Positions 17,690-61,245 of a stretch of DNA of 64,000 nt are shown piece after piece; positions within the stretch are counted from its first letter, which is position 1; each line of letters opens with the position of its first letter. Source of the stretch: Escherichia phage MN03. The stretch lies in the sequence record NC_070990.1; one strand, 5' to 3'. The notes under the pieces are model-generated. The model did not search any database and was not told the DNA's origin. It worked only from the letters and a program-made list of their open reading frames with translations. The translations under genes and the position numbers were made by a program.

Positions 17690-19339
17690 ATGCAACAGAC
17701 AACTTACGCTCAGGTCAGAAGTCGTGACCCGAGAAATACTTTCTATGGTGTTAATCCGGGAGCGGCTTCGGCCTCTCCTTATATGGCTAGACCAACTCAG
17801 ACAGCAGATATTTCTATGTATCAACGTCCTGCTATACCTGCTGGGCTTTCCTCTCTTGTAGGTCAAACTTCAGTAGATTATCAGAATATGTTGAATCCTG
17901 TTCAGAGTAATGGTCTTCCTTCTGATATCCCAAATGATGTACAACCTCAAGCACAACAGGCTGTAACTCTTCCTGAGTTTGAGAATCAAGAAACCATGCA
18001 AGCTGCTGGACTTTCCCCTTCTTCTATTCCTCCAGAATCAGAACCTCTTCCGGTAACACCTCCTACTAAACCGTTAGAAGCTGGTCCTATGGAGTTTACT
18101 CCTTCTCAGGTGGAACAGGCACAAGGTGTGATTAATACTCTTGCTCAAGGACAAGACGCTGGTGATGGAATGACTGCTGCTACTCGTGCTAAAGATCAGG
18201 AACGTGTTAACAACGATATCTTGCAAGTTGCGAAAGCTAAAGACCCTTCGGAAGCTTGGAACAAACTACAGAAAGAACCATTCTATCAGAACTCTAGTTT
18301 CTACACAGGTTTGATGGGTGTAGGTCTTTCCATTATGTCAGGTAAGTCTCCTATTGAAGCTTTCCAGATTGGTCAGGGAATGGCTAATCAAGATGAGACT
18401 AAGAAGCAACTGGAAGCTAACCGTGATGCTCTGATTGAACAAGGCTTCTCTCAAGACTCGATTGCAGCTGCTATTGCTAACGGAGACCCATCTCTACTGA
18501 AGATGAGATCTGTAGACCCTGCTCAGAAAGAAGCGTTGTATGCTGCTCGTGAAGAACGACAAAATGCTGAATGGGATAGACGTCAACAGATTCAAGAGCA
18601 AACTATGCGTGAGCGTGCTGATGAAACTCGTCGTGCCGCTGAAGAAAGAGCTAACATGAACTTTGAACGTCAGAAAGAGTTGATTGGTTATCGTGATAAG
18701 GTTAAGGCTGAACGTGCTGAACAAGCTGCTCAGAGTTTTAACTTTAACCCGAAAGAAGTTCGTCTTGCTCAGAATACAGCTGAAGGTACGGTTGCTAAGC
18801 AGTGGGCAGAGAAAGGTGGCCTGTTTAACCAGTCTAACAAAGACTTGGATTTGGCTGATAAGGCTGTTAAGGATAAAGACTATCAGACAGCTCGTTCTGC
18901 TTACATGCAGGCTATCATGAACTCCGCAAGGGCTGAAATCGGTGCTACTCGTTCTCTTACCGAAGAAGACTTGGGGCACTTTGCAGAAGACCCATCAATC
19001 TTCGTTCGTGTTGGCAACAAGTTTGCACTGAAGTCTGGATGGCGTCCTACTGATTCTGCTCTTGCTTATGCTCGTAAGCAAGCTAACGTTGGTCACACCT
19101 CTGCAATGAAAGGTGTTGCTGATGCTAAGAGAGCTACGATTGAAGCTTACATCGGTTCTGGTATGGATAAGAAGAGAGCTACTGCATTGGTTAACCGTGC
19201 AATCCCTTCTGGTGGTTTCTATGACCCTCTAGGTGTTTTCTCTGAACAAGCAGAAGAAGCAGTTGGTGGTGCAGCAACCAATCCTAAGCTTAATGGTGCT
19301 TTATCAGCTGTCGAAGACACTAGCTGGTTTACTCAATAA
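17690..19339 (+). CDS. internal virion protein
   Basis: 549 aa; Pro-rich N-part, hydrophobic segment, charged helical C-part; in the internal-protein block. Confidence 0.4.
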   Translation: MQQTTYAQVRSRDPRNTFYGVNPGAASASPYMARPTQTADISMYQRPAIPAGLSSLVGQTSVDYQNMLNPVQSNGLPSDIPNDVQPQAQQAVTLPEFENQETMQAAGLSPSSIPPESEPLPVTPPTKPLEAGPMEFTPSQVEQAQGVINTLAQGQDAGDGMTAATRAKDQERVNNDILQVAKAKDPSEAWNKLQKEPFYQNSSFYTGLMGVGLSIMSGKSPIEAFQIGQGMANQDETKKQLEANRDALIEQGFSQDSIAAAIANGDPSLLKMRSVDPAQKEALYAAREERQNAEWDRRQQIQEQTMRERADETRRAAEERANMNFERQKELIGYRDKVKAERAEQAAQSFNFNPKEVRLAQNTAEGTVAKQWAEKGGLFNQSNKDLDLADKAVKDKDYQTARSAYMQAIMNSARAEIGATRSLTEEDLGHFAEDPSIFVRVGNKFALKSGWRPTDSALAYARKQANVGHTSAMKGVADAKRATIEAYIGSGMDKKRATALVNRAIPSGGFYDPLGVFSEQAEEAVGGAATNPKLNGALSAVEDTSWFTQ

Positions 19340-19359
19340 GACCTAAGTCCTGCCTTCTA

Positions 19360-19368
19360 TAATGTATA
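19360..19368 (+). promoter_or_regulatory. TAATGTATA motif, candidate phage-sigma promoter
   Basis: TATAATGTATATA 38 nt upstream of the ATG at 19407. Confidence 0.45.
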
Positions 19369-26693: not shown

Positions 26694-28179
<1,486 letters not shown>

Positions 28180-28443: not shown

Positions 28444-28675
28444 GCATCTCTTTATAAACGGTTTCCGTGTTCTTCTTCCAGTTAGATAAACCGGTAAGAA
28501 CCCTCTGAGCAACTTCATCAGCTGCTCTATTTCTTTCAATCTCTAACTCTTGTTGATGTTTCTCTTTGTCCAGATTACTGCTGTCTGTTTGATATTCGTT
28601 AAACTTCATACCACCAAAGAATACAAGAGCTGAGAAAACGATAAACCCTAAGTTATCACTTAATGTGTTTTGCAT
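28325..28675 (-). CDS. i-spanin (Rz-like)
   Basis: N-terminal TM then coiled-coil periplasmic domain; GGAG RBS at ATG 28675. Confidence 0.55.
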   Translation of the reverse strand: MQNTLSDNLGFIVFSALVFFGGMKFNEYQTDSSNLDKEKHQQELEIERNRAADEVAQRVLTGLSNWKKNTETVYKEMHYEKTKPVFYNVCASDEYVSLFNERQQQAINALTNKPKS

Positions 28676-28688
28676 GTTGTCTCCAACG

Positions 28689-28710
28689 AAAAAAGCCACC
28701 CGGAGGTGGC
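28689..28710 (-). terminator. rho-independent terminator (minus strand)
   Basis: GCCACC-TCCG-GGTGGC hairpin plus TTTTTT on the minus strand. Confidence 0.6.
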
Positions 28711-28732
28711 TAAGCTATAACAAGGAGAGTTA

Positions 28733-29479
28733 TTAGAATGGGCTATCGTTGTCGTCTTCGTAAGTAGAAGCAGGCTCTTTATCAATCGTAGGGATTGAAG
28801 GAGTAGCTTCTTTCTGCTCTGTTTCAGAAGCACGAGTAATTTCACGACCAGCCAGAGGCATATTCTTAGCGTCATTAGCTTGAGTAAGCAGGTTGCGCTG
28901 GAACGGGAACATCAGTTGATAGGATGCTACGTTCTCATCGGTTTCAGCATACGGTTCGAAGAATACCAGAGGACTACGAGCTTCACCAACTGCTGCACGA
29001 TATTTGGTTGGGATTGGAGAAATGGTCTTGATGGAGTTTTTAACTTCACCAGCTTTGTTAGTGTAAGAGTTAACCAGAATGTTAACAGGCTGACCTAACA
29101 GAACATCTTTGAACCAAGACAGATCACCTTTCAGTGCTTGAATACTTGGGTCAATCATCTTGCAAAGATCAAGAATACCAGAGTTCTTAGCTCGTGGGTT
29201 TACATCATAACTCTTGAACTGGCAAGCTGGACGTGGTTCTAATGCCTTACCATCGGAATCTTTACCAGTAGCATCAACACCAATCAGCTCGAAAGCTAAA
29301 TCCATACGGAAAGCCGGATTCTTAGGAGTTACTGCTTTGGTCTTCGGGTCAATCCAAGGGTCACGATTGTGAACACCCAAACCTACTACACGAACGATAC
29401 GTGCTTCGTATTCACCATCAGGGATTACATCGTAGTTGGATTTACGGGAAGAAGTTGCGATAGTTGGAATCATAGACAT
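28733..29479 (-). CDS. putative ssDNA-binding protein
   Basis: Acidic C-terminal tail ending DDNDSPF like SSB/gp2.5 tails; phage-sigma motif upstream. Confidence 0.4.
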   Translation of the reverse strand: MSMIPTIATSSRKSNYDVIPDGEYEARIVRVVGLGVHNRDPWIDPKTKAVTPKNPAFRMDLAFELIGVDATGKDSDGKALEPRPACQFKSYDVNPRAKNSGILDLCKMIDPSIQALKGDLSWFKDVLLGQPVNILVNSYTNKAGEVKNSIKTISPIPTKYRAAVGEARSPLVFFEPYAETDENVASYQLMFPFQRNLLTQANDAKNMPLAGREITRASETEQKEATPSIPTIDKEPASTYEDDNDSPF

Positions 29480-29538
29480 AGTGTAATTTCCTTATTTAAT
29501 TTGAAAGATTGTTGCTCTCTTTGAGCGGTTATGTATAG

Positions 29539-29547
29539 TATACATTA
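29539..29547 (-). promoter_or_regulatory. TAATGTATA motif on the minus strand, candidate phage-sigma promoter
   Basis: Reverse complement gives TAATGTATA 59 nt upstream of the ATG at 29479. Confidence 0.4.
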
Positions 29548-29610
29548 CGCTTATACCGATAAGAGTACTATATAATATAAGAACCTTTGGTAGTAGATAT
29601 AACACACTAG

Positions 29611-29619
29611 TAATGTATA
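29611..29619 (+). promoter_or_regulatory. TAATGTATA motif on the plus strand with no downstream plus-strand ORF
   Basis: Exact motif pointing into minus-strand genes; no ATG-initiated plus ORF for more than 600 nt. Confidence 0.3.
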
Positions 29620-29715
29620 TATTGTATAGCTGATAAAGTTATTGCAGGCTTGTATATTGGGCAATTCACAGAATCCCTTGCAAGTACCGAAGGGCAGGAG
29701 CCACCTGCGAGATAA

Positions 29716-29781
29716 AAATAGAGAATTAAGGAATCCTTGATTTAGGTTGTAGGGACTCCTAGGGACTTTGATTCTCTATTT
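29716..29781. promoter_or_regulatory. 11-bp perfect inverted repeat (AAATAGAGAAT/ATTCTCTATTT) flanking a duplicated AGGGACT core; candidate operator or origin-like element
   Basis: Arms at 29716..29726 and 29771..29781; AGGGACT at 29751 and 29761; inside a 416-bp AT-rich intergenic region. Confidence 0.4.
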
Positions 29782-30025
29782 AAAAGAATATTAATTACTT
29801 ATTACCTAAATAATTAACTAACTTACTTAAACCAAATTCAAGAATAATAGATAAAAAGATTATTCCTAAGAAAGCTAAAAAGTAAAGGATATAAGTTACC
29901 ATTCAAGTAAACCTTTAAAGTTAGACTGTTCTAATATCCTCTGATAACGGAGATTAGAATCAGCTTGTTTCTTTAACATCTCATTATATTGATCTCTGAT
30001 AGAGTCTTTATGTACTACAGGTTCT

Positions 30026-30529
30026 TTAAATAATGAGATCTTGTTCTTTTCTTCTTTCATCAAAAACCTTCCTAATCTCTTGCAGAGAAACAGCTTTATA
30101 ATCAATTTGCTCCATTGATGTACAGAAATATCTCCAATCATCAATTACATGATTATGTGTATGAGCATAAATATTAAACTTTCCTCTCATCTCATCAGTG
30201 TGAATAGGAATATGAGTTACCCAAAACTCTTTGTACTTATAATCACCAGAGATTCTACGGAAGACTTTCATCATATCAGGGAGAAGTTCTAACCTGTCAT
30301 GGTTTCCTAAGACTAGATGCTTCTCTCCTTTTACTTCAGCGATGATATCAAGGGCATACTTTTCAAACACCCAGTCACCAGTAAAGAAGATTTTATCTCG
30401 CTTAGTTACATGATCAAATGCAGCTAGAATTGCTTTGTCATGTTCTTCGATGGTTTTAAATTGCTTACGAAAACTACAGATGTTGCGATGACCTAAGTGA
30501 CCATCCCCTGCAAAATAAACTTCAGCCAT
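30026..30529 (-). CDS. calcineurin-like metallophosphoesterase
   Basis: GDGHLGH, GD and GNHD motifs. Confidence 0.6.
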   Translation of the reverse strand: MAEVYFAGDGHLGHRNICSFRKQFKTIEEHDKAILAAFDHVTKRDKIFFTGDWVFEKYALDIIAEVKGEKHLVLGNHDRLELLPDMMKVFRRISGDYKYKEFWVTHIPIHTDEMRGKFNIYAHTHNHVIDDWRYFCTSMEQIDYKAVSLQEIRKVFDERRKEQDLII

Positions 30530-30538
30530 AAAGACCTC

Positions 30539-30754
30539 TTAGATAGTGCACCCGTCGCAAGTTAAATCACCTAGAAGGGATAGAGAAAGTAATCTGGATT
30601 GCTCATCACTGTATAGTTGATCTATCTCTTCTTTAAGTTTTGCCAACTCAATGAAATTGATAAGTTGACCATGTTCAAGACAGTCAGCTTTTAGTATGAA
30701 CAAAACTTCAGCGTCTGTTGAATCTTCACTTGAGTATTTATCAATGTATTCCAT
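30539..30754 (-). CDS. hypothetical protein
   Basis: ORF with RBS. Confidence 0.3.
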   Translation of the reverse strand: MEYIDKYSSEDSTDAEVLFILKADCLEHGQLINFIELAKLKEEIDQLYSDEQSRLLSLSLLGDLTCDGCTI

Positions 30755-30756
30755 TT

Positions 30757-30978
30757 TTATGCCACATCTCCTTGTTTATTGTTAATAACATCCAGTGCTG
30801 TATAAGCTTTACCTGTTCCTAAGTATTCCAGAACAGGAGGACTCTTCTTTTCTTCAGCGACTATATAAGGTGTGATTTTTCCTTTCAGTACAGCCTGAGA
30901 TGCTTTAGCACTATCTTCAGATGTGTGAATAGTAGTAAGCCCTTTCTTCCCAATTCTATAAGTGTGAACCCAAATCAT
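30757..30978 (-). CDS. hypothetical protein
   Basis: ORF in a tightly packed array. Confidence 0.3.
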   Translation of the reverse strand: MIWVHTYRIGKKGLTTIHTSEDSAKASQAVLKGKITPYIVAEEKKSPPVLEYLGTGKAYTALDVINNKQGDVA

Positions 30979-30980
30979 TC

Positions 30981-31142
30981 TTATTCCTCATATTCCCAAT
31001 TTCTTTCATAATATCCAGAGTTATAGTTTAGGGCGCACTTCTCGGCCTCTTCTATATCGTCAGTGTTTAGGATATTTACCCATCCTCCAACTTCATCAAA
31101 ACCTTCTTCTACTTCGTTAAACCATACACTATACTTTTTCAT
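30981..31142 (-). CDS. hypothetical protein
   Basis: Internal ATG overlapping the upstream stop (ATGA). Confidence 0.3.
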   Translation of the reverse strand: MKKYSVWFNEVEEGFDEVGGWVNILNTDDIEEAEKCALNYNSGYYERNWEYEE

Positions 31143-31315
31143 CGAGAAGTTCTTCCCCAATCTTTTACATAGCATCGACCGTTAACCCACTTTGTCTCTG
31201 ACTTAAATTCCTGAGACAATCTCACTTCACAGTCTTCTCTACTAGCATCTCCTCCAATATCAATCAGATATAAGAATAGAGCTATACCTAAAGCCCAAAG
31301 AATTATCTTCTTCAT
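31139..31315 (-). CDS. small membrane protein (58 aa)
   Basis: N-terminal hydrophobic segment; start abuts the upstream stop. Confidence 0.25.
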   Translation of the reverse strand: MKKIILWALGIALFLYLIDIGGDASREDCEVRLSQEFKSETKWVNGRCYVKDWGRTSR

Positions 31316-31722
31316 CGAATCACCAAAGGCTCTTCAGAGTACACAGGAGCGGCTATTTCTACAGGAGGTGCTGCCCTAAGGTCATTAAGTCTTACGCCCT
31401 TCAGCATACCGTCTAGGTGGTCCTTTTTAGGGATTCCAACAGGGAAGTCATCAATCCAGATATCGACGAAGAAACCTAACTGTCGACACACCTCATCCTT
31501 CTGTACACCATTACAAAAGATGACAGGGATTTGCAGGGTCTCTGCATCATAGAGGATATCCACGTTATCATAACCGTTAGGCTCTGAGAAACGGAAAGTC
31601 ACGAATCTTACATCATGTCCATACCCTTTCATCAAGCCTATCACATCTCTCCACAGTCGTCTGTCTGCTGTGTAAGTGTCATCATAATCTAAACCAATAT
31701 TCATGTCAAATCCTTTAGACAA
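31312..31722 (-). CDS. HAD-superfamily phosphatase (nucleotidase-like)
   Basis: DxDxT motif (GLDYDDTYT) near the N-terminus and VDIWIDD. Confidence 0.45.
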   Translation of the reverse strand: MSKGFDMNIGLDYDDTYTADRRLWRDVIGLMKGYGHDVRFVTFRFSEPNGYDNVDILYDAETLQIPVIFCNGVQKDEVCRQLGFFVDIWIDDFPVGIPKKDHLDGMLKGVRLNDLRAAPPVEIAAPVYSEEPLVIR

Positions 31723-32852: not shown

Positions 32853-34697
32853 TTAGTGTGTGTGCATCCAGTTAAGTCCAATCTGACAATCAGAAGCCAG
32901 AGGGCATTCCATGTTCAAATACTCACCAGCCTTCTTAACACAAAGCTCGGTGTGCTCTTTGAGTTTCTGTACATCATTACGGTTCACTGAGAATTGACCT
33001 TCATCGTGCATATCAATTACCTTAGCACAACGAACCTTATCTTTCTCAATCCACTTGTTAAGGAACATCATAGCATATTTCATAACAACAGCACCAGCAC
33101 ATTGCAGGAGTGTGTTAAGGGCTTTATGAACCATAACCTTACCAGTGGCATCCCGTCTCATTGTAATCTTACGACCATCAACTCCAATCAAGTATCCTTG
33201 AGCAGCTTTCTCTGTCATACGATCAATGAGGATTGCAATACATGGGTTCTCTGCTAAGAAACGTGCTCGCATCACTGAACCTTCGTCAGCCCCACCACCT
33301 ACAATTGAACCAAGCTTAGCGTCACCAGCACCATAGTTGAATGCGTAGATAAACGTCTTAGCGTTGTCACGAGTAGGAAGACCAGCAAGTTTCTGGTTGT
33401 GGGAGTGGATATCACCTTCAAGGAGAATATCACGATACATAATAGCAGAAGCTAAACCACGTTCTGCCAGAGCTTTCTTAGCTGGATTGTTCTCTTCGAT
33501 TGCCTCAGCAAGCATATCCCTACACTCTTTAATGAGGTAGTGAGCGAGCATACGAAGTTCAAGCCCAGAACCATCATACCCTAAGAATACTTCTTTACCA
33601 GCGGGTATGTAATATTTGTAAGCACCTACAGGTTTGTCTTTCTTCCCCGGTTTACCTTTCTCATAAATTACGTTAGTACCTTTTCGTATATAACAACCAT
33701 CAGGAACAACGTTAGTAATAACGAAAGGACGAGAATGATCACTGTCTGAGTTATAGTCAGACTCAAACAAACTGCGACACTCGTGACCAAACAAACCACG
33801 GGAGGGAATATTAACCACGATACGATGTTTGAATCGAAAAGTCGGCGTAGCGCAGCTGTTAGCTTCTGCCGAAAGTTTACCATCTTCTCGCTCCTTTGCT
33901 ATGAGTCCACTGATAAGACCTAGCCTGTGAGCCGCCACAACGCGTCTCTTAAGCAAACTTCCGACACTCCCTAGCTCACCCCCTAACCCTTCTTCAAGAG
34001 TCTCCTCGAGGTTTGTAGGAGCTGTAGGCCACTTGTTTGATGTGGCTAGTGCTTTCTTAATCTCATCAAACGTTACAGGATTACGGCGATTAGGGTTTAA
34101 TCCCAAACCAAACACGTAAGCCTTCATGTAATTCTTAGTCTTAAACCTGAAATGCTTTTCTAAGAACTTCTTAATATCAGCGTCAACCATCTCAGCTGTC
34201 TGCTTCTGCTTAGCATTGCCTCGCATCCAAGCAGTATACCATGCTTGGTATGTTCCATACTTTCTCATATCTTTCTTAATTTCGAAAGTATTCCAAGGCT
34301 TCTTAGATACGTTAAACTCTGGAGGAAGAAAGCCCTCATCCATAAGAGCTTCTTTAACTCGTGCATCTTTCGATGGGTCAAAGTCTACGTATTCGACACA
34401 GGTGAATGCTCCACCAATATCTTCTCTCTTCAGCCCAACCCTATCACAATAGGCTTGAGGCCACTTCTGTAAAGCTCCAGACTTCTTAAATGGCTTCATG
34501 TAAGTAGAGCCATCTAATCTCATCTTAGGTAAGAGAGGAATCAACTCTCTGTCAATATTAACAATAATCTCTTTAAGGAGGTGAACATACCACCGAGCAT
34601 TTCTTCGGTTGAAACTCACTCCGTGCTTTGCTTGCTTAGAGATTATATCAGCGACAGTCATCTCTGTCAAAAATGGAAGAGCGTCCGGGTTGCTCAC
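32853..34697 (-). CDS. DNA polymerase, family A, polymerase domain only
   Basis: Motif A LGYDGSGLELR, motif B RDNAKTFIYAFNYGAG, motif C MHDE. Confidence 0.85.
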   Translation of the reverse strand: MSNPDALPFLTEMTVADIISKQAKHGVSFNRRNARWYVHLLKEIIVNIDRELIPLLPKMRLDGSTYMKPFKKSGALQKWPQAYCDRVGLKREDIGGAFTCVEYVDFDPSKDARVKEALMDEGFLPPEFNVSKKPWNTFEIKKDMRKYGTYQAWYTAWMRGNAKQKQTAEMVDADIKKFLEKHFRFKTKNYMKAYVFGLGLNPNRRNPVTFDEIKKALATSNKWPTAPTNLEETLEEGLGGELGSVGSLLKRRVVAAHRLGLISGLIAKEREDGKLSAEANSCATPTFRFKHRIVVNIPSRGLFGHECRSLFESDYNSDSDHSRPFVITNVVPDGCYIRKGTNVIYEKGKPGKKDKPVGAYKYYIPAGKEVFLGYDGSGLELRMLAHYLIKECRDMLAEAIEENNPAKKALAERGLASAIMYRDILLEGDIHSHNQKLAGLPTRDNAKTFIYAFNYGAGDAKLGSIVGGGADEGSVMRARFLAENPCIAILIDRMTEKAAQGYLIGVDGRKITMRRDATGKVMVHKALNTLLQCAGAVVMKYAMMFLNKWIEKDKVRCAKVIDMHDEGQFSVNRNDVQKLKEHTELCVKKAGEYLNMECPLASDCQIGLNWMHTH

Positions 34698-36584: not shown

Positions 36585-37322
36585 TTAAGCTTTCTTTTCC
36601 ATTGCTTTAACAATCGCCTTACAGAAACCAGAACGAACAATATCATCTGATTCACCATCTACAATCTCAGCAAACTCATACAGATCGTGTTCATCAATAA
36701 AGTTAGTAGCCCAAGTTAGACCACTCTCGCGACCACGCATATCATGCTGGTTTGTATCACCCATACAGAACAATTGAGAGGTTTCTCCCAATCGAGTCAT
36801 GATGGAGAAGGCTTCATCCTTAGTTGTGTTCTGGAACTCATCAACAATAACAATAGCATCATTGAAAGAACGACCACGGAGATATTCCAGAGGTACAAAC
36901 TCAATGTTACCATTTCCGATTTGGCATTCATAGAATCCCTTACCATATCGCTGAGTAATAACATCAATGATAGGCATCAGGTATGGTTCAAACTTCTCAC
37001 GCATTCCTCCCGGAAGTAACCCAAGAGAGTTGCCCATGCCAACCGAAGGGCGACTCAGAATGATCTTCTGAATCTTACCGCTCTTCAGTGCATCAATAAC
37101 TGTGGAAGTGATTACAAAGGTCTTACCACAGCCCGCAGGAGCGTCTGTGAACACAACTTGTTTAGTCTTAATAGCATTGAGTAGCTCAGACTGAAACTGG
37201 TTCTGAGGGACTACAGGCTTTGCTAAAACCACCTCTTCATACTCTCGCTTACCCTTACGAGTAACAAGTGCTTCTCGACGAAGGTCTTTCCGTGATTCTT
37301 TCCGTGATTGACGACGACTCAT
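36585..37322 (-). CDS. phoH: PhoH-like ATPase
   Basis: Walker A GCGKTF and PhoH-like length and pattern. Confidence 0.7.
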   Translation of the reverse strand: MSRRQSRKESRKDLRREALVTRKGKREYEEVVLAKPVVPQNQFQSELLNAIKTKQVVFTDAPAGCGKTFVITSTVIDALKSGKIQKIILSRPSVGMGNSLGLLPGGMREKFEPYLMPIIDVITQRYGKGFYECQIGNGNIEFVPLEYLRGRSFNDAIVIVDEFQNTTKDEAFSIMTRLGETSQLFCMGDTNQHDMRGRESGLTWATNFIDEHDLYEFAEIVDGESDDIVRSGFCKAIVKAMEKKA

Positions 37323-40931: not shown

Positions 40932-40940
40932 TATACATTT
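40932..40940 (-). promoter_or_regulatory. AAATGTATA motif on the minus strand, variant phage-sigma promoter
   Basis: One mismatch from TAATGTATA; 39 nt upstream of the ATG at 40892. Confidence 0.35.
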
Positions 40941-40964
40941 GAGAGTTACCATATCTACTACCAA

Positions 40965-59759: not shown

Positions 59760-59835
59760 TGGTGCGCCCTACAGGACTCGAACCTGTAACCAATAGCTTA
59801 GAAGGCTACTGCTCTATCCATTGAGCTAAGAGCGC
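59760..59835 (-). tRNA. tRNA-Arg(UCU): tRNA-Arg (anticodon UCU)
   Basis: Manual fold: acceptor GCGCTCT/AGGGCGC, D-arm GCTC/GAGC, anticodon stem GTAGC/GCTAT with loop CTTCTAA, T-arm ACAGG-TTCGAGT-CCTGT, discriminator A, encoded CCA. Confidence 0.85.
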
Positions 59836-60661: not shown

Positions 60662-60699
60662 TTTAGCTTCCTCTTGTTAGTTTAAGTAAGAGTTGTCCC

Positions 60700-60734
60700 T
60701 TAATTAAAACAACAAAGGCCGCCCGAAGGCAGCC
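60700..60734 (-). terminator. rho-independent terminator (minus strand)
   Basis: GGCTGCC-TTCG-GGCGGCC hairpin plus TTTGTTGTTTT on the minus strand. Confidence 0.55.
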
Positions 60735-61131
60735 TCTCTTTATTTGTTAACTGTTATACGTCCAATTACCTTGCTTGTTACGGATGGCTGACATTGCATG
60801 AATCCAAAAGCCTTCCAGTTTCAGAGCACCATTAGCTACTGCATCCATACGTTCAGGGCGGTTCATACGTTTGGTTGATACTTTCATACATATCTCTCTT
60901 TGTTAGTGGAGGCATTATTGCCAGTTGATATAAGGGATAGCCCTAGTCAGGAGGCTAATTCTGACCGCGTACTCATTGCCGACCTTCTCTGCCTAAGAGT
61001 TCAGGTTCTAGAGCTATCTCTTATTCCAACTGGTGAAGACTTCCTACCCCTAGGAAGTCTCCTGAATCCCAAACCAATACGTACCCCTACATATTGGAAA
61101 GTCTTTCGAAAATTAACAGGTTTTAGTCTAG

Positions 61132-61245
61132 CACCGGATGTTCGAGCAAGCTCTCCCTAGCGGTGTGGCATATGCCTGAATTAATAAGTTAATGAGGAAC
61201 ACCCTCACATAGCCCTCTGATAAACACAAGGGCTATAAGTCGGTG
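61132..61245. repeat. conserved noncoding element, copy B, inside a 355-bp gene-free gap
   Basis: Same three blocks and hairpin as copy A; begins right after a minus-strand stop codon. Confidence 0.5.

Follow-up and report, generated by a model that had tools for sequence, protein, structure and literature searches.

The gap between gene 40 and phi32_41

The window analyzed here is a stretch of 64,000 nucleotides (nt) from Escherichia phage MN03 (sequence record NC_070990.1), a Kuravirus (phiEco32-like) genome with 98% identity to Kuravirus genomes. The subject is the gap at 29480-29794. It is bounded on the left by the homologue of phiEco32 gene 40 (28733..29479, minus strand) and on the right by phi32_41 (29795..29902, minus strand), which encodes a hydrophobic peptide of 35 amino acids; the right flank of the region holds small genes on the minus strand and a gene for a phosphoesterase. 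Over the surrounding 1.9 kb, identity to many Kuravirus phages (TH38, SU10, WFI101126, NJ01) is 96-98%. Two promoters of phage type face away from each other in the gap: the published gene 40 promoter P40 on the minus strand and a putative promoter on the plus strand, designated Pplus, which is followed by a candidate non-coding RNA of ~158 nt (29626..29783, plus strand; 5' end predicted, 3' end uncertain). The new content of the analysis is this unannotated, putative P68-type gp36 promoter together with a lineage-specific, ultra-conserved candidate RNA gene. The region as a whole is probably a control region between the upstream middle-gene operon, which ends in phi32_42 and phi32_41, and gene 40.

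A sequence-only reading had treated 29480-29895 as an AT-rich regulatory hub with divergent promoter-like motifs. The base composition was borne out (69.5% A+T versus 57.7% in the whole window). Two divergent phage-type promoters were also found, but half of the proposed hub had already been published as P40, and its iteron part proved wrong (see below). The claim that no intergenic region of the minus arm is larger was not upheld: because phi32_41 is counted as a gene, the true gap is 315 bp, and even with small ORFs disregarded, the interval 60662-61245 (584 bp) is longer. That interval is the largest minus-arm gap without a minus-strand open reading frame (ORF) of at least 50 amino acids and is probably the early promoter region, by analogy with SU10.

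Promoters used by RNA polymerase carrying the phage sigma factor gp36 share a single conserved element, tAATGTAtA, and transcription starts 6-8 nt downstream of it (PMC8948821). Six such promoters have been published, upstream of phiEco32 genes 6, 13, 26, 40, 58, and 68 (PMC4331800). A 2025 cryo-electron microscopy structure shows the gp36 holoenzyme in an open complex at P68, a middle-class promoter: gp36 recognizes -14A to -11G through its N-terminal domain and the -35 region (-37G, -34A) through its C-terminal domain, and these bases are required for activity (PMC12276001). The published gp36 -10 element in its exact form, TAATGTATA, was found five times in the window, compared with 0.67 expected, and none of 100 shuffles reached five. 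When up to one mismatch was allowed, 21 matches (including the five exact ones) were obtained versus 19.4 expected. Since the one-mismatch class is not enriched, its members at 29529 and 29620 carry no weight by themselves.

The minus-strand motif that had been noticed at 29539 was confirmed at 29539-29547 (top strand TATACATTA). It is the -10 element of P40, already published as the gp36-dependent middle promoter that drives gene 40. Table S2 of the SU10 paper (PMC4281155) gives aagcgtaatgtatactatacataaccgctcaaagagagcaa between CDS37 and CDS38 as the sole site in this gap, on the minus strand, and this gene 40 promoter sequence is identical to the minus strand of the window; the motif is therefore P40 and not new. 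Its near-palindromic partner, TTATGTATA at 29529-29537, is also present. Together the two form a 19-bp near-palindrome, TTATGTATA-g-TATACATTA (29529..29547), which overlaps the P40 -10 element and start site. In a comparison of 17 phages spanning three genera, the arms TGTATA/TATACA were kept in every phage, with a spacer of 1 nt (Kuravirus type) or 3 nt (SU7 type); the other gp36 promoters of the window have no such near-palindrome. As a promoter in its own right the partner was rejected, with T at the essential -14A position, no -35 box, and loss of the motif in SU7-type phages. The adjacent TATTGTATA was rejected as a promoter as well: it belongs to the unenriched one-mismatch class, is not conserved as a motif, and has no -35 box.

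The plus-strand motif reported at 29611, with no plus-strand ORF behind it, held up and gained a second element. Pplus consists of an exact TAATGTATA as -10 element (29611..29619, plus strand) and a -35 box of the P68 type, TGGTAGTAGATA (29588..29599, plus strand), with GGTAGT at -37..-32. TGGTAGTAGATA occurs exactly twice in the 64 kb, in Pplus and at 40952-40963 (minus strand) in the P68 homologue, and both copies sit 11 nt upstream of (T/A)AATGTATA. The Pplus sequence ttGGTAGTAGATAt at -39..-26 is the same, in the same register, as that of the P68 homologue site at 40932-40940 (minus strand). GGTAGT and TAATGTATATA were invariant in 17 of 17 phages, and the 11-nt spacer between them drifts freely. 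All P68 bases contacted by gp36 (-37G, -34A, and -14A to -11G) are present. Pplus thus resembles P68 in the tAATGTAtA element, in the register of its upstream box, and in its conservation across the phiEco32 subgroup. It differs from P68 and P40 in that it opposes the flanking genes, has no downstream ORF, and is found neither among the six published phiEco32 promoters nor in SU10 Table S2. By P68 numbering, the predicted start is A29626, which corresponds to about position 36719 of phiEco32. On this evidence, Pplus is very probably functional.

Phages of the ES17 type carry an insertion of ~140 bp between P40 and Pplus, which supplies P40 with a GGTAGT -35 box in exact register. The two promoters are therefore independent modules placed back to back, since the insertion separates them and gives P40 a box of its own. 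The insertion (positions 801-1066 of the ES17 locus L020; also in loci L051, L053, L054, and L056) encodes a basic ORF of 47 amino acids, ES17_37. Across the 17 phages, the -35 hexamer of P40 was much more variable than that of Pplus. Late-class gp36 promoters, represented in the window by the P13 and P26 homologues (2470-2515 and 19325-19368, both plus strand), share AAGACCTA at about -36..-29. The difference between AAGACCTA and TGGTAGTAGATA as upstream boxes may underlie the late and middle promoter classes.

In the SU10 study, the sequence TTGGTA...TGTATAT of P68 was judged to be a good sigma-70 promoter (PMC4281155). Since Pplus (29587-29625, plus strand) has the same TTGGTA as P68 (40926-40964, minus strand), host RNA polymerase might use Pplus early. 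Most of what a metagenome scan for P68-type promoters brought up was P68 itself, and only two further loci of the candidate RNA were gained.

Structure and conservation of the candidate RNA

The candidate RNA begins with P1, a hairpin of 6 bp whose first base is the predicted +1 (29626..29642, plus strand) and which is indicated by folding and by covariation. Its stem showed double changes (UA to and from GC; exchanges among CG, UA, and AU) and an alternation of GC with GU, and the loop was free to vary. Two pairs were doubly changed and one alternated between GC and GU; none of 500 shuffles reached this score, in a test weakened by the close relationship of the sequences. The window version of P1 folds on the plus strand only (-3.0 versus 0 kcal/mol).

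P1 is followed by a variable domain, which in the window is of class A (29643..29688, plus strand). Several metagenomic genomes, as well as MN05, ES17, and ECBP2, have class B in its place, a sequence unrelated to class A and 26 nt longer that forms two hairpins, one of them with a compensatory change from CUG/CAG to CCG/CGG. Class B was found in 12 of ~97 GenBank relatives. It also occurs at loci whose gp40 is 100% identical to that of the window, which indicates that the variable domain has been exchanged by recombination. Matches of class B in ICP1 phages were dismissed as chance (E = 0.7), and neither class was present in E. coli genomes.

The next element, P2, is the hairpin GCAGG-AGCCA-CCUGC (29694..29708, plus strand; -7.9 kcal/mol), with an invariant stem and a loop that varies only between C and A. 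An A-rich, single-stranded linker connects it to P3, a long hairpin (29716..29781) built on the 11-bp perfect inverted repeat that the sequence-only reading had described. The repeat was confirmed (arms 29716-29726 and 29771-29781) and extends to 14 nt at 93% complementarity. An inverted repeat of at least 11 bp arose in 3% of dinucleotide shuffles, which is marginal by itself; this one is invariant in 28 related loci. On the plus strand, P3 has 15 + 3 + 4 bp including U-G and G-U pairs, with a folding energy of -23.5 kcal/mol (z -3.2). The duplicated AGGGACT said to lie within the repeat is present as two direct repeats of TAGGGACT (29750-57 and 29760-67, plus strand), 10 bp apart in the apical portion of P3. 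In XT32, TH34, NC-B, EK010, and ECBP2, the two are jointly changed to AGGACT. The motif is not spread through the genome (three copies in the window versus 1.8 expected). A further pair of near-identical direct repeats on the plus strand is formed by CCTTGATT (29735-42) and CTTTGATT (29766-73). Since either can pair with AATTAAGG (29724-31), P3 would have two alternative folds and might act as a conformational switch.

Identity of the 95-nt core (29689-29783) reached 93-100% in phages whose gene 40 DNA matches that of the window at only ~81-83%, and the conservation ends at the end of P3, before the phi32_41 ORF. The element was present in 28 of 28 related loci as a single copy, with no paralogous copy in the window. 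The only ORFs within it are spurious, with TTG starts and lengths of 32 and 21 amino acids, and are broken by indels in relatives. Every reading frame is interrupted by the domain replacement and by indels of 1 and 2 nt, which means that the candidate RNA is non-coding.

A scan of viral contigs with the exact core returned Kuravirus-like genomes only. The 7-11-like relatives (loci L007-L009) have an unrelated gap, in which the covariance model found nothing. No Rfam 15 family was matched, small-RNA and CRISPR-repeat families included: at the gathering threshold, the sole match in the whole window was a tRNA at 59763-59835, and the best matches in 29400-30000 at E ≤ 10 had E values of 3.2 and 5.3, far below threshold, with no Phage_pRNA among them. 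The tRNA match coincides with a tRNA-Arg gene (anticodon TCT) at 59760-59835 on the minus strand. A search for tRNA and tmRNA genes found none in the region.

The strand on which the element acts was assessed by folding. Over the whole element, the minimum free energy was -45.8 kcal/mol (z -2.4) on the plus strand versus -35.3 kcal/mol (z -1.6) on the minus strand, and the plus strand folded better in 17 of 17 phages. The consensus fold gave -31.1 versus -25.2 kcal/mol, and P1 was lost on the minus strand. Pairing was possible in 99.6% of cells on the plus strand versus 92.4% on the minus strand; three pairs of P3 and one of P1 can form on the plus strand only. The sole substitution in P3, an A to G change in XT32, keeps a G-U pair. 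In addition, G exceeds C in the RNA (skew +0.20, versus -0.16 in the flanking DNA), so that the sign flips to the sense-strand type. The G-U pairs, the folding energies, and the G>C skew favour a plus-strand RNA of ~160 nt. Of the options that the sequence-only reading had left for the plus-strand motif, a non-coding RNA is the one favoured by the evidence (P1 covariation, plus-strand fold, and core conservation).

P3 also folds on the minus strand, into an 11-bp stem with an 8-bp inner helix (-18.2 kcal/mol, z -4.3), followed by UUUUUAUCUC. The A5 tract at 29714-29718, which is U5 on the minus strand, is invariant. With this conserved U5 behind it, the minus-strand hairpin is probably the terminator of the upstream operon, and a plus-strand RNA would then be antisense to the 3' end of that operon. 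Of the 11 bp of the minus-strand stem, only two are G-C pairs, and the stem encloses 44 nt. By comparison, the plus-strand sequence that follows P3 reads UAAAAGAA (AAAAUCAA for the variant lineage); this 3' flank is neither rich in U nor constant between lineages. The conservation of P1, P2, and the linker is hard to explain from the minus strand, because these parts, like the variable domain, lie downstream of the minus-strand hairpin and its U-tract.

Proposed function and competing explanations

We favour the interpretation that the gap holds Pplus together with a discrete structured non-coding RNA, with a probability of about 0.6. In the mechanism we propose, the two back-to-back promoters would serve E. 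coli RNA polymerase carrying gp36. P40 would drive gene 40 through a 53-nt leader, and Pplus would start at A29626 and yield an RNA of ~160 nt composed of P1, the exchangeable variable domain, P2, the A-rich linker, and P3. The RNA would be made at middle times, given that Pplus is P68-like and that P68 is activated by gp79, and its terminal hairpins would stabilize it. The minus-strand form of P3 would end the transcripts of the upstream operon. By pairing with convergent or read-through transcripts of that operon, the RNA could enforce their termination or processing and so insulate gene 40. This role as an antisense RNA or insulator at the operon boundary is put forward tentatively. What speaks for it over other functions is the complementarity between the RNA and the convergent operon, at the 3' end and terminator hairpin of the latter.

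The OOP RNA of phage lambda, a 77-nt antisense RNA transcribed from pO, opposes the 3' end of cII beside the replication genes. The candidate RNA is likewise short and non-coding, its promoter faces the 3' end of the upstream gene, and it lies in or next to the replication module. OOP differs in having a sigma-70 promoter, a canonical intrinsic terminator, and an overlap with coding sequence, whereas the conserved part of the candidate RNA stops before the upstream ORF and is followed by no plus-strand U-tract. The two share no similarity in sequence or structure (Rfam scan negative).

Several results weigh against the favoured interpretation. Neither strand of P3 was called by a simple terminator scan, a consequence of its A+U-rich stem and long loop. 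No plus-strand terminator or U-tract that would define the 3' end of the RNA was found in 28500-31500. The family is shallow, with an effective number of sequences of 1.09, and covariation is limited to P1; as P2 and P3 never vary, they are silent on pairing, for or against. With respect to targets in trans, no complementarity of at least 13 nt was found anywhere in the window, and 11- and 12-mers occurred at chance level. RNAduplex over 164 translation-initiation regions gave no outlier (best z -2.8; gene 40, z +0.4). Finally, a purely antisense role leaves the invariance of the loops and the linker unexplained, which suggests an additional partner.

The main functional rival is a transcription-primed replication origin, in which the Pplus transcript would enter A+T-rich DNA and an R-loop or primer would start the leading strand, a plan that resembles ColE1 RNA II. 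In the primary origin of T7 and in oriF and oriG of T4, one or more phage promoters are followed by an A+T-rich unwinding element, and the transcript serves as primer. The gap has a comparable arrangement. Pplus (29588-29619) has no ORF behind it and opposes the flanking genes, and the most A+T-rich 100 bp of the 64-kb window (29765-29864, 83%) begins inside the 3' arm of P3 and runs directly downstream of it on the plus strand. Phages without phi32_41 are still A+T-rich at this position, and the RNA has four GGG runs versus one CCC run. The locus is part of a replication gene cluster, with a DNA polymerase gene (32853-34697) ~3 kb upstream and a single-stranded DNA (ssDNA)-binding label on gene 40 in one record, and no origin has been described for these phages in the searchable literature. 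However, ~140-160 nt of conserved structured sequence intervenes here, whereas the unwinding element is close to the promoter in T7 and T4. Most of the A+T-rich tract is phi32_41 coding sequence, and the tract is not conserved in sequence. A covarying, stabilizing hairpin at the 5' terminus suggests a persistent RNA rather than a transient primer, and the GC skew profile follows gene orientation only and gives no origin signal. An origin of this kind appears unlikely.

We considered it equally improbable that the gap produces no functional plus-strand RNA and that the conserved block acts as DNA, or as a minus-strand terminator or RNase III-type hairpin together with sequence upstream of P40, with Pplus silent or incidental. 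The minus-strand fold of P3 is the more significant one and carries the conserved U5, P2 and P3 do not covary, and published promoter lists have only P40 here. Recombination in the gap is frequent, so that identity may partly reflect exchange instead of selection. This explanation leaves several observations unaccounted for: a -35 box that matches P68 exactly, keeps its register, and does not vary among the 17 phages while the spacer drifts; compensatory changes in P1, which cannot form on the minus strand of the window; and the conservation of P2 and the linker beyond the minus-strand terminator. The block is also not part of P40, as the ES17-type insertion shows, and the -35 region of P40 is far less conserved than that of Pplus.

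A trans-acting RNA is more doubtful again. Transcribed with the phage sigma factor at middle times, it would bind proteins or nucleic acids, combine an invariant P2/linker/P3 end with an exchangeable specificity domain, and act for example as a decoy, in counter-defence, or by sponging up a host factor. The reading of an arms race is based on the swapping of domain classes between phages with 100% identical gp40. A sponge for CsrA in particular was rejected (four GGA motifs versus ~3 expected). The pRNA of phi29 (Rfam Phage_pRNA) is a ~170-nt structured RNA of a prolate-headed podovirus, and the candidate RNA, likewise structured and phage-encoded, is of about that size and also comes from a podovirus whose head is elongated. 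It differs in having no Rfam match to that family at E ≤ 10 and in its genome position and promoter class, and nothing ties it to packaging. Kuraviruses package by terminase, with terminal repeats (PMC4281155).

The sequence-only reading had itself proposed a protein-binding hub or an iteron-type replication origin, with TTAC-type iteron-like repeats at about 29800-29840. Palindromes do cluster in the gap (GCAGG..CCTGC, AAGGAATCCTT, CCTAGG, and the 11-bp inverted repeat), and the two 8-bp direct repeats lie one helical turn apart, change together in one lineage, and have an A+T-rich tract alongside. But two short repeats fall short of an array of at least three. Tandem Repeats Finder reported nothing in 29400-30000, a repeat search showed no TTAC family, and the stretch in question is not a tandem array but the 3' half of the phi32_41 coding sequence. 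In the variant lineage, the period of the direct repeats changes from 10 to 9 bp and 1 nt is inserted at the center of AAGGAATCCTT; such changes suit hairpin loops and would be awkward for dimeric sites. The motifs are also not reused elsewhere in the genome. We regard a hub of this kind as very unlikely.

The neighbour phi32_41 (MVTYILYFLAFLGIIFLSIILEFGLSKLVNYLGNK; phrog_24970, E = 2.7e-24) is annotated in phiEco32, WFI101126, SU7, EP335, and MN05, and its ORF length is kept despite amino acid changes in EP335. It is absent from seven of the 17 phages (LAMP, XT32, TH34, Bas86, NC-B, EK010, and ECBP2) and truncated or frameshifted in two more. The gene has no promoter of its own, and the overlap between its start and the stop of the ORF before it (ATGGTAA) suggests translational coupling. 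In convergent type I toxin-antitoxin loci with a shared bidirectional terminator, such as Fst/RNA II of pAD1 and TxpA/RatA, a small hydrophobic peptide gene and a convergent RNA overlap at the common hairpin, as phi32_41 and the candidate RNA would; here the RNA persists without the peptide gene, the peptide gene is inside an operon, and there are no complementary 5' repeats. A pair in which phi32_41 is the toxin, the plus-strand RNA the antitoxin, and P3 the shared terminator would suit the single predicted membrane helix of the peptide and the convergent promoter, whose transcript would overlap that of phi32_41 at P3, but this explanation fails and has hardly any probability left because the RNA and Pplus are fully conserved in the seven phages without phi32_41 and the two with a broken gene, with conservation ending at P3, before the ORF.

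Gene 40 and implications for the phiEco32-like phages

The gene for gp36 lies at 27073-27720. Gene 40 looks like an insulated unit, as it has P40 in front and a canonical intrinsic terminator behind (AGCCACC-TCCG-GGTGGCT followed by T6; 28711..28694, minus strand), 22 nt past its stop codon. With the P40 start placed 7 nt after the -10 element according to the numbering of the P68 cryo-electron microscopy structure (PMC12276001), the predicted leader extends over 53 nt from 29532 to the ATG at 29479 (29480..29532, minus strand). Folding placed a hairpin, GCUC-AAAGA-GAGC, in this leader; between the hairpin and the Shine-Dalgarno sequence AAGGAAA lies an A+U-rich stretch without predicted structure. 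Some 45 nt of the leader were invariant in the 17 phages.

No sequence match to gp40 was found in Pfam or the PDB. The protein ends in ...STYEDDNDSPF, an acidic tail with a final Pro-Phe, as in the C terminus of E. coli SSB. Its designation as an ssDNA-binding protein appears in one GenBank record only; gp40 is thus a candidate SSB on the basis of this one annotation and the ...DDNDSPF tail. The leader recalls the translational autoregulation leaders of ssDNA-binding proteins, for example that of T4 gene 32. In WFI101126 (locus L001, 1535-1948), SU10, Ptacy1532, and FH3, an HNH homing-endonuclease gene is located directly downstream of gene 40; the window has none.

The phage phiEco32 is a model for a phage-encoded sigma factor and its partner gp79, and Kuraviruses such as ES17 and SU10 are common in phage-therapy collections. 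If the favoured interpretation is correct, Pplus would raise the number of gp36 promoters to seven, fit both promoter elements best of all, and refine the promoter model. GGTAGT at -37..-32 may then be a class-specific -35 box, as opposed to the AAGACCTA of late promoters. The RNA would be the first non-coding gene proposed for the subfamily, better conserved than the adjacent gene. It would be a candidate for a replication origin or a new regulatory layer. For genome engineering, the seemingly 'empty' gap would be unsuitable as a neutral insertion site.

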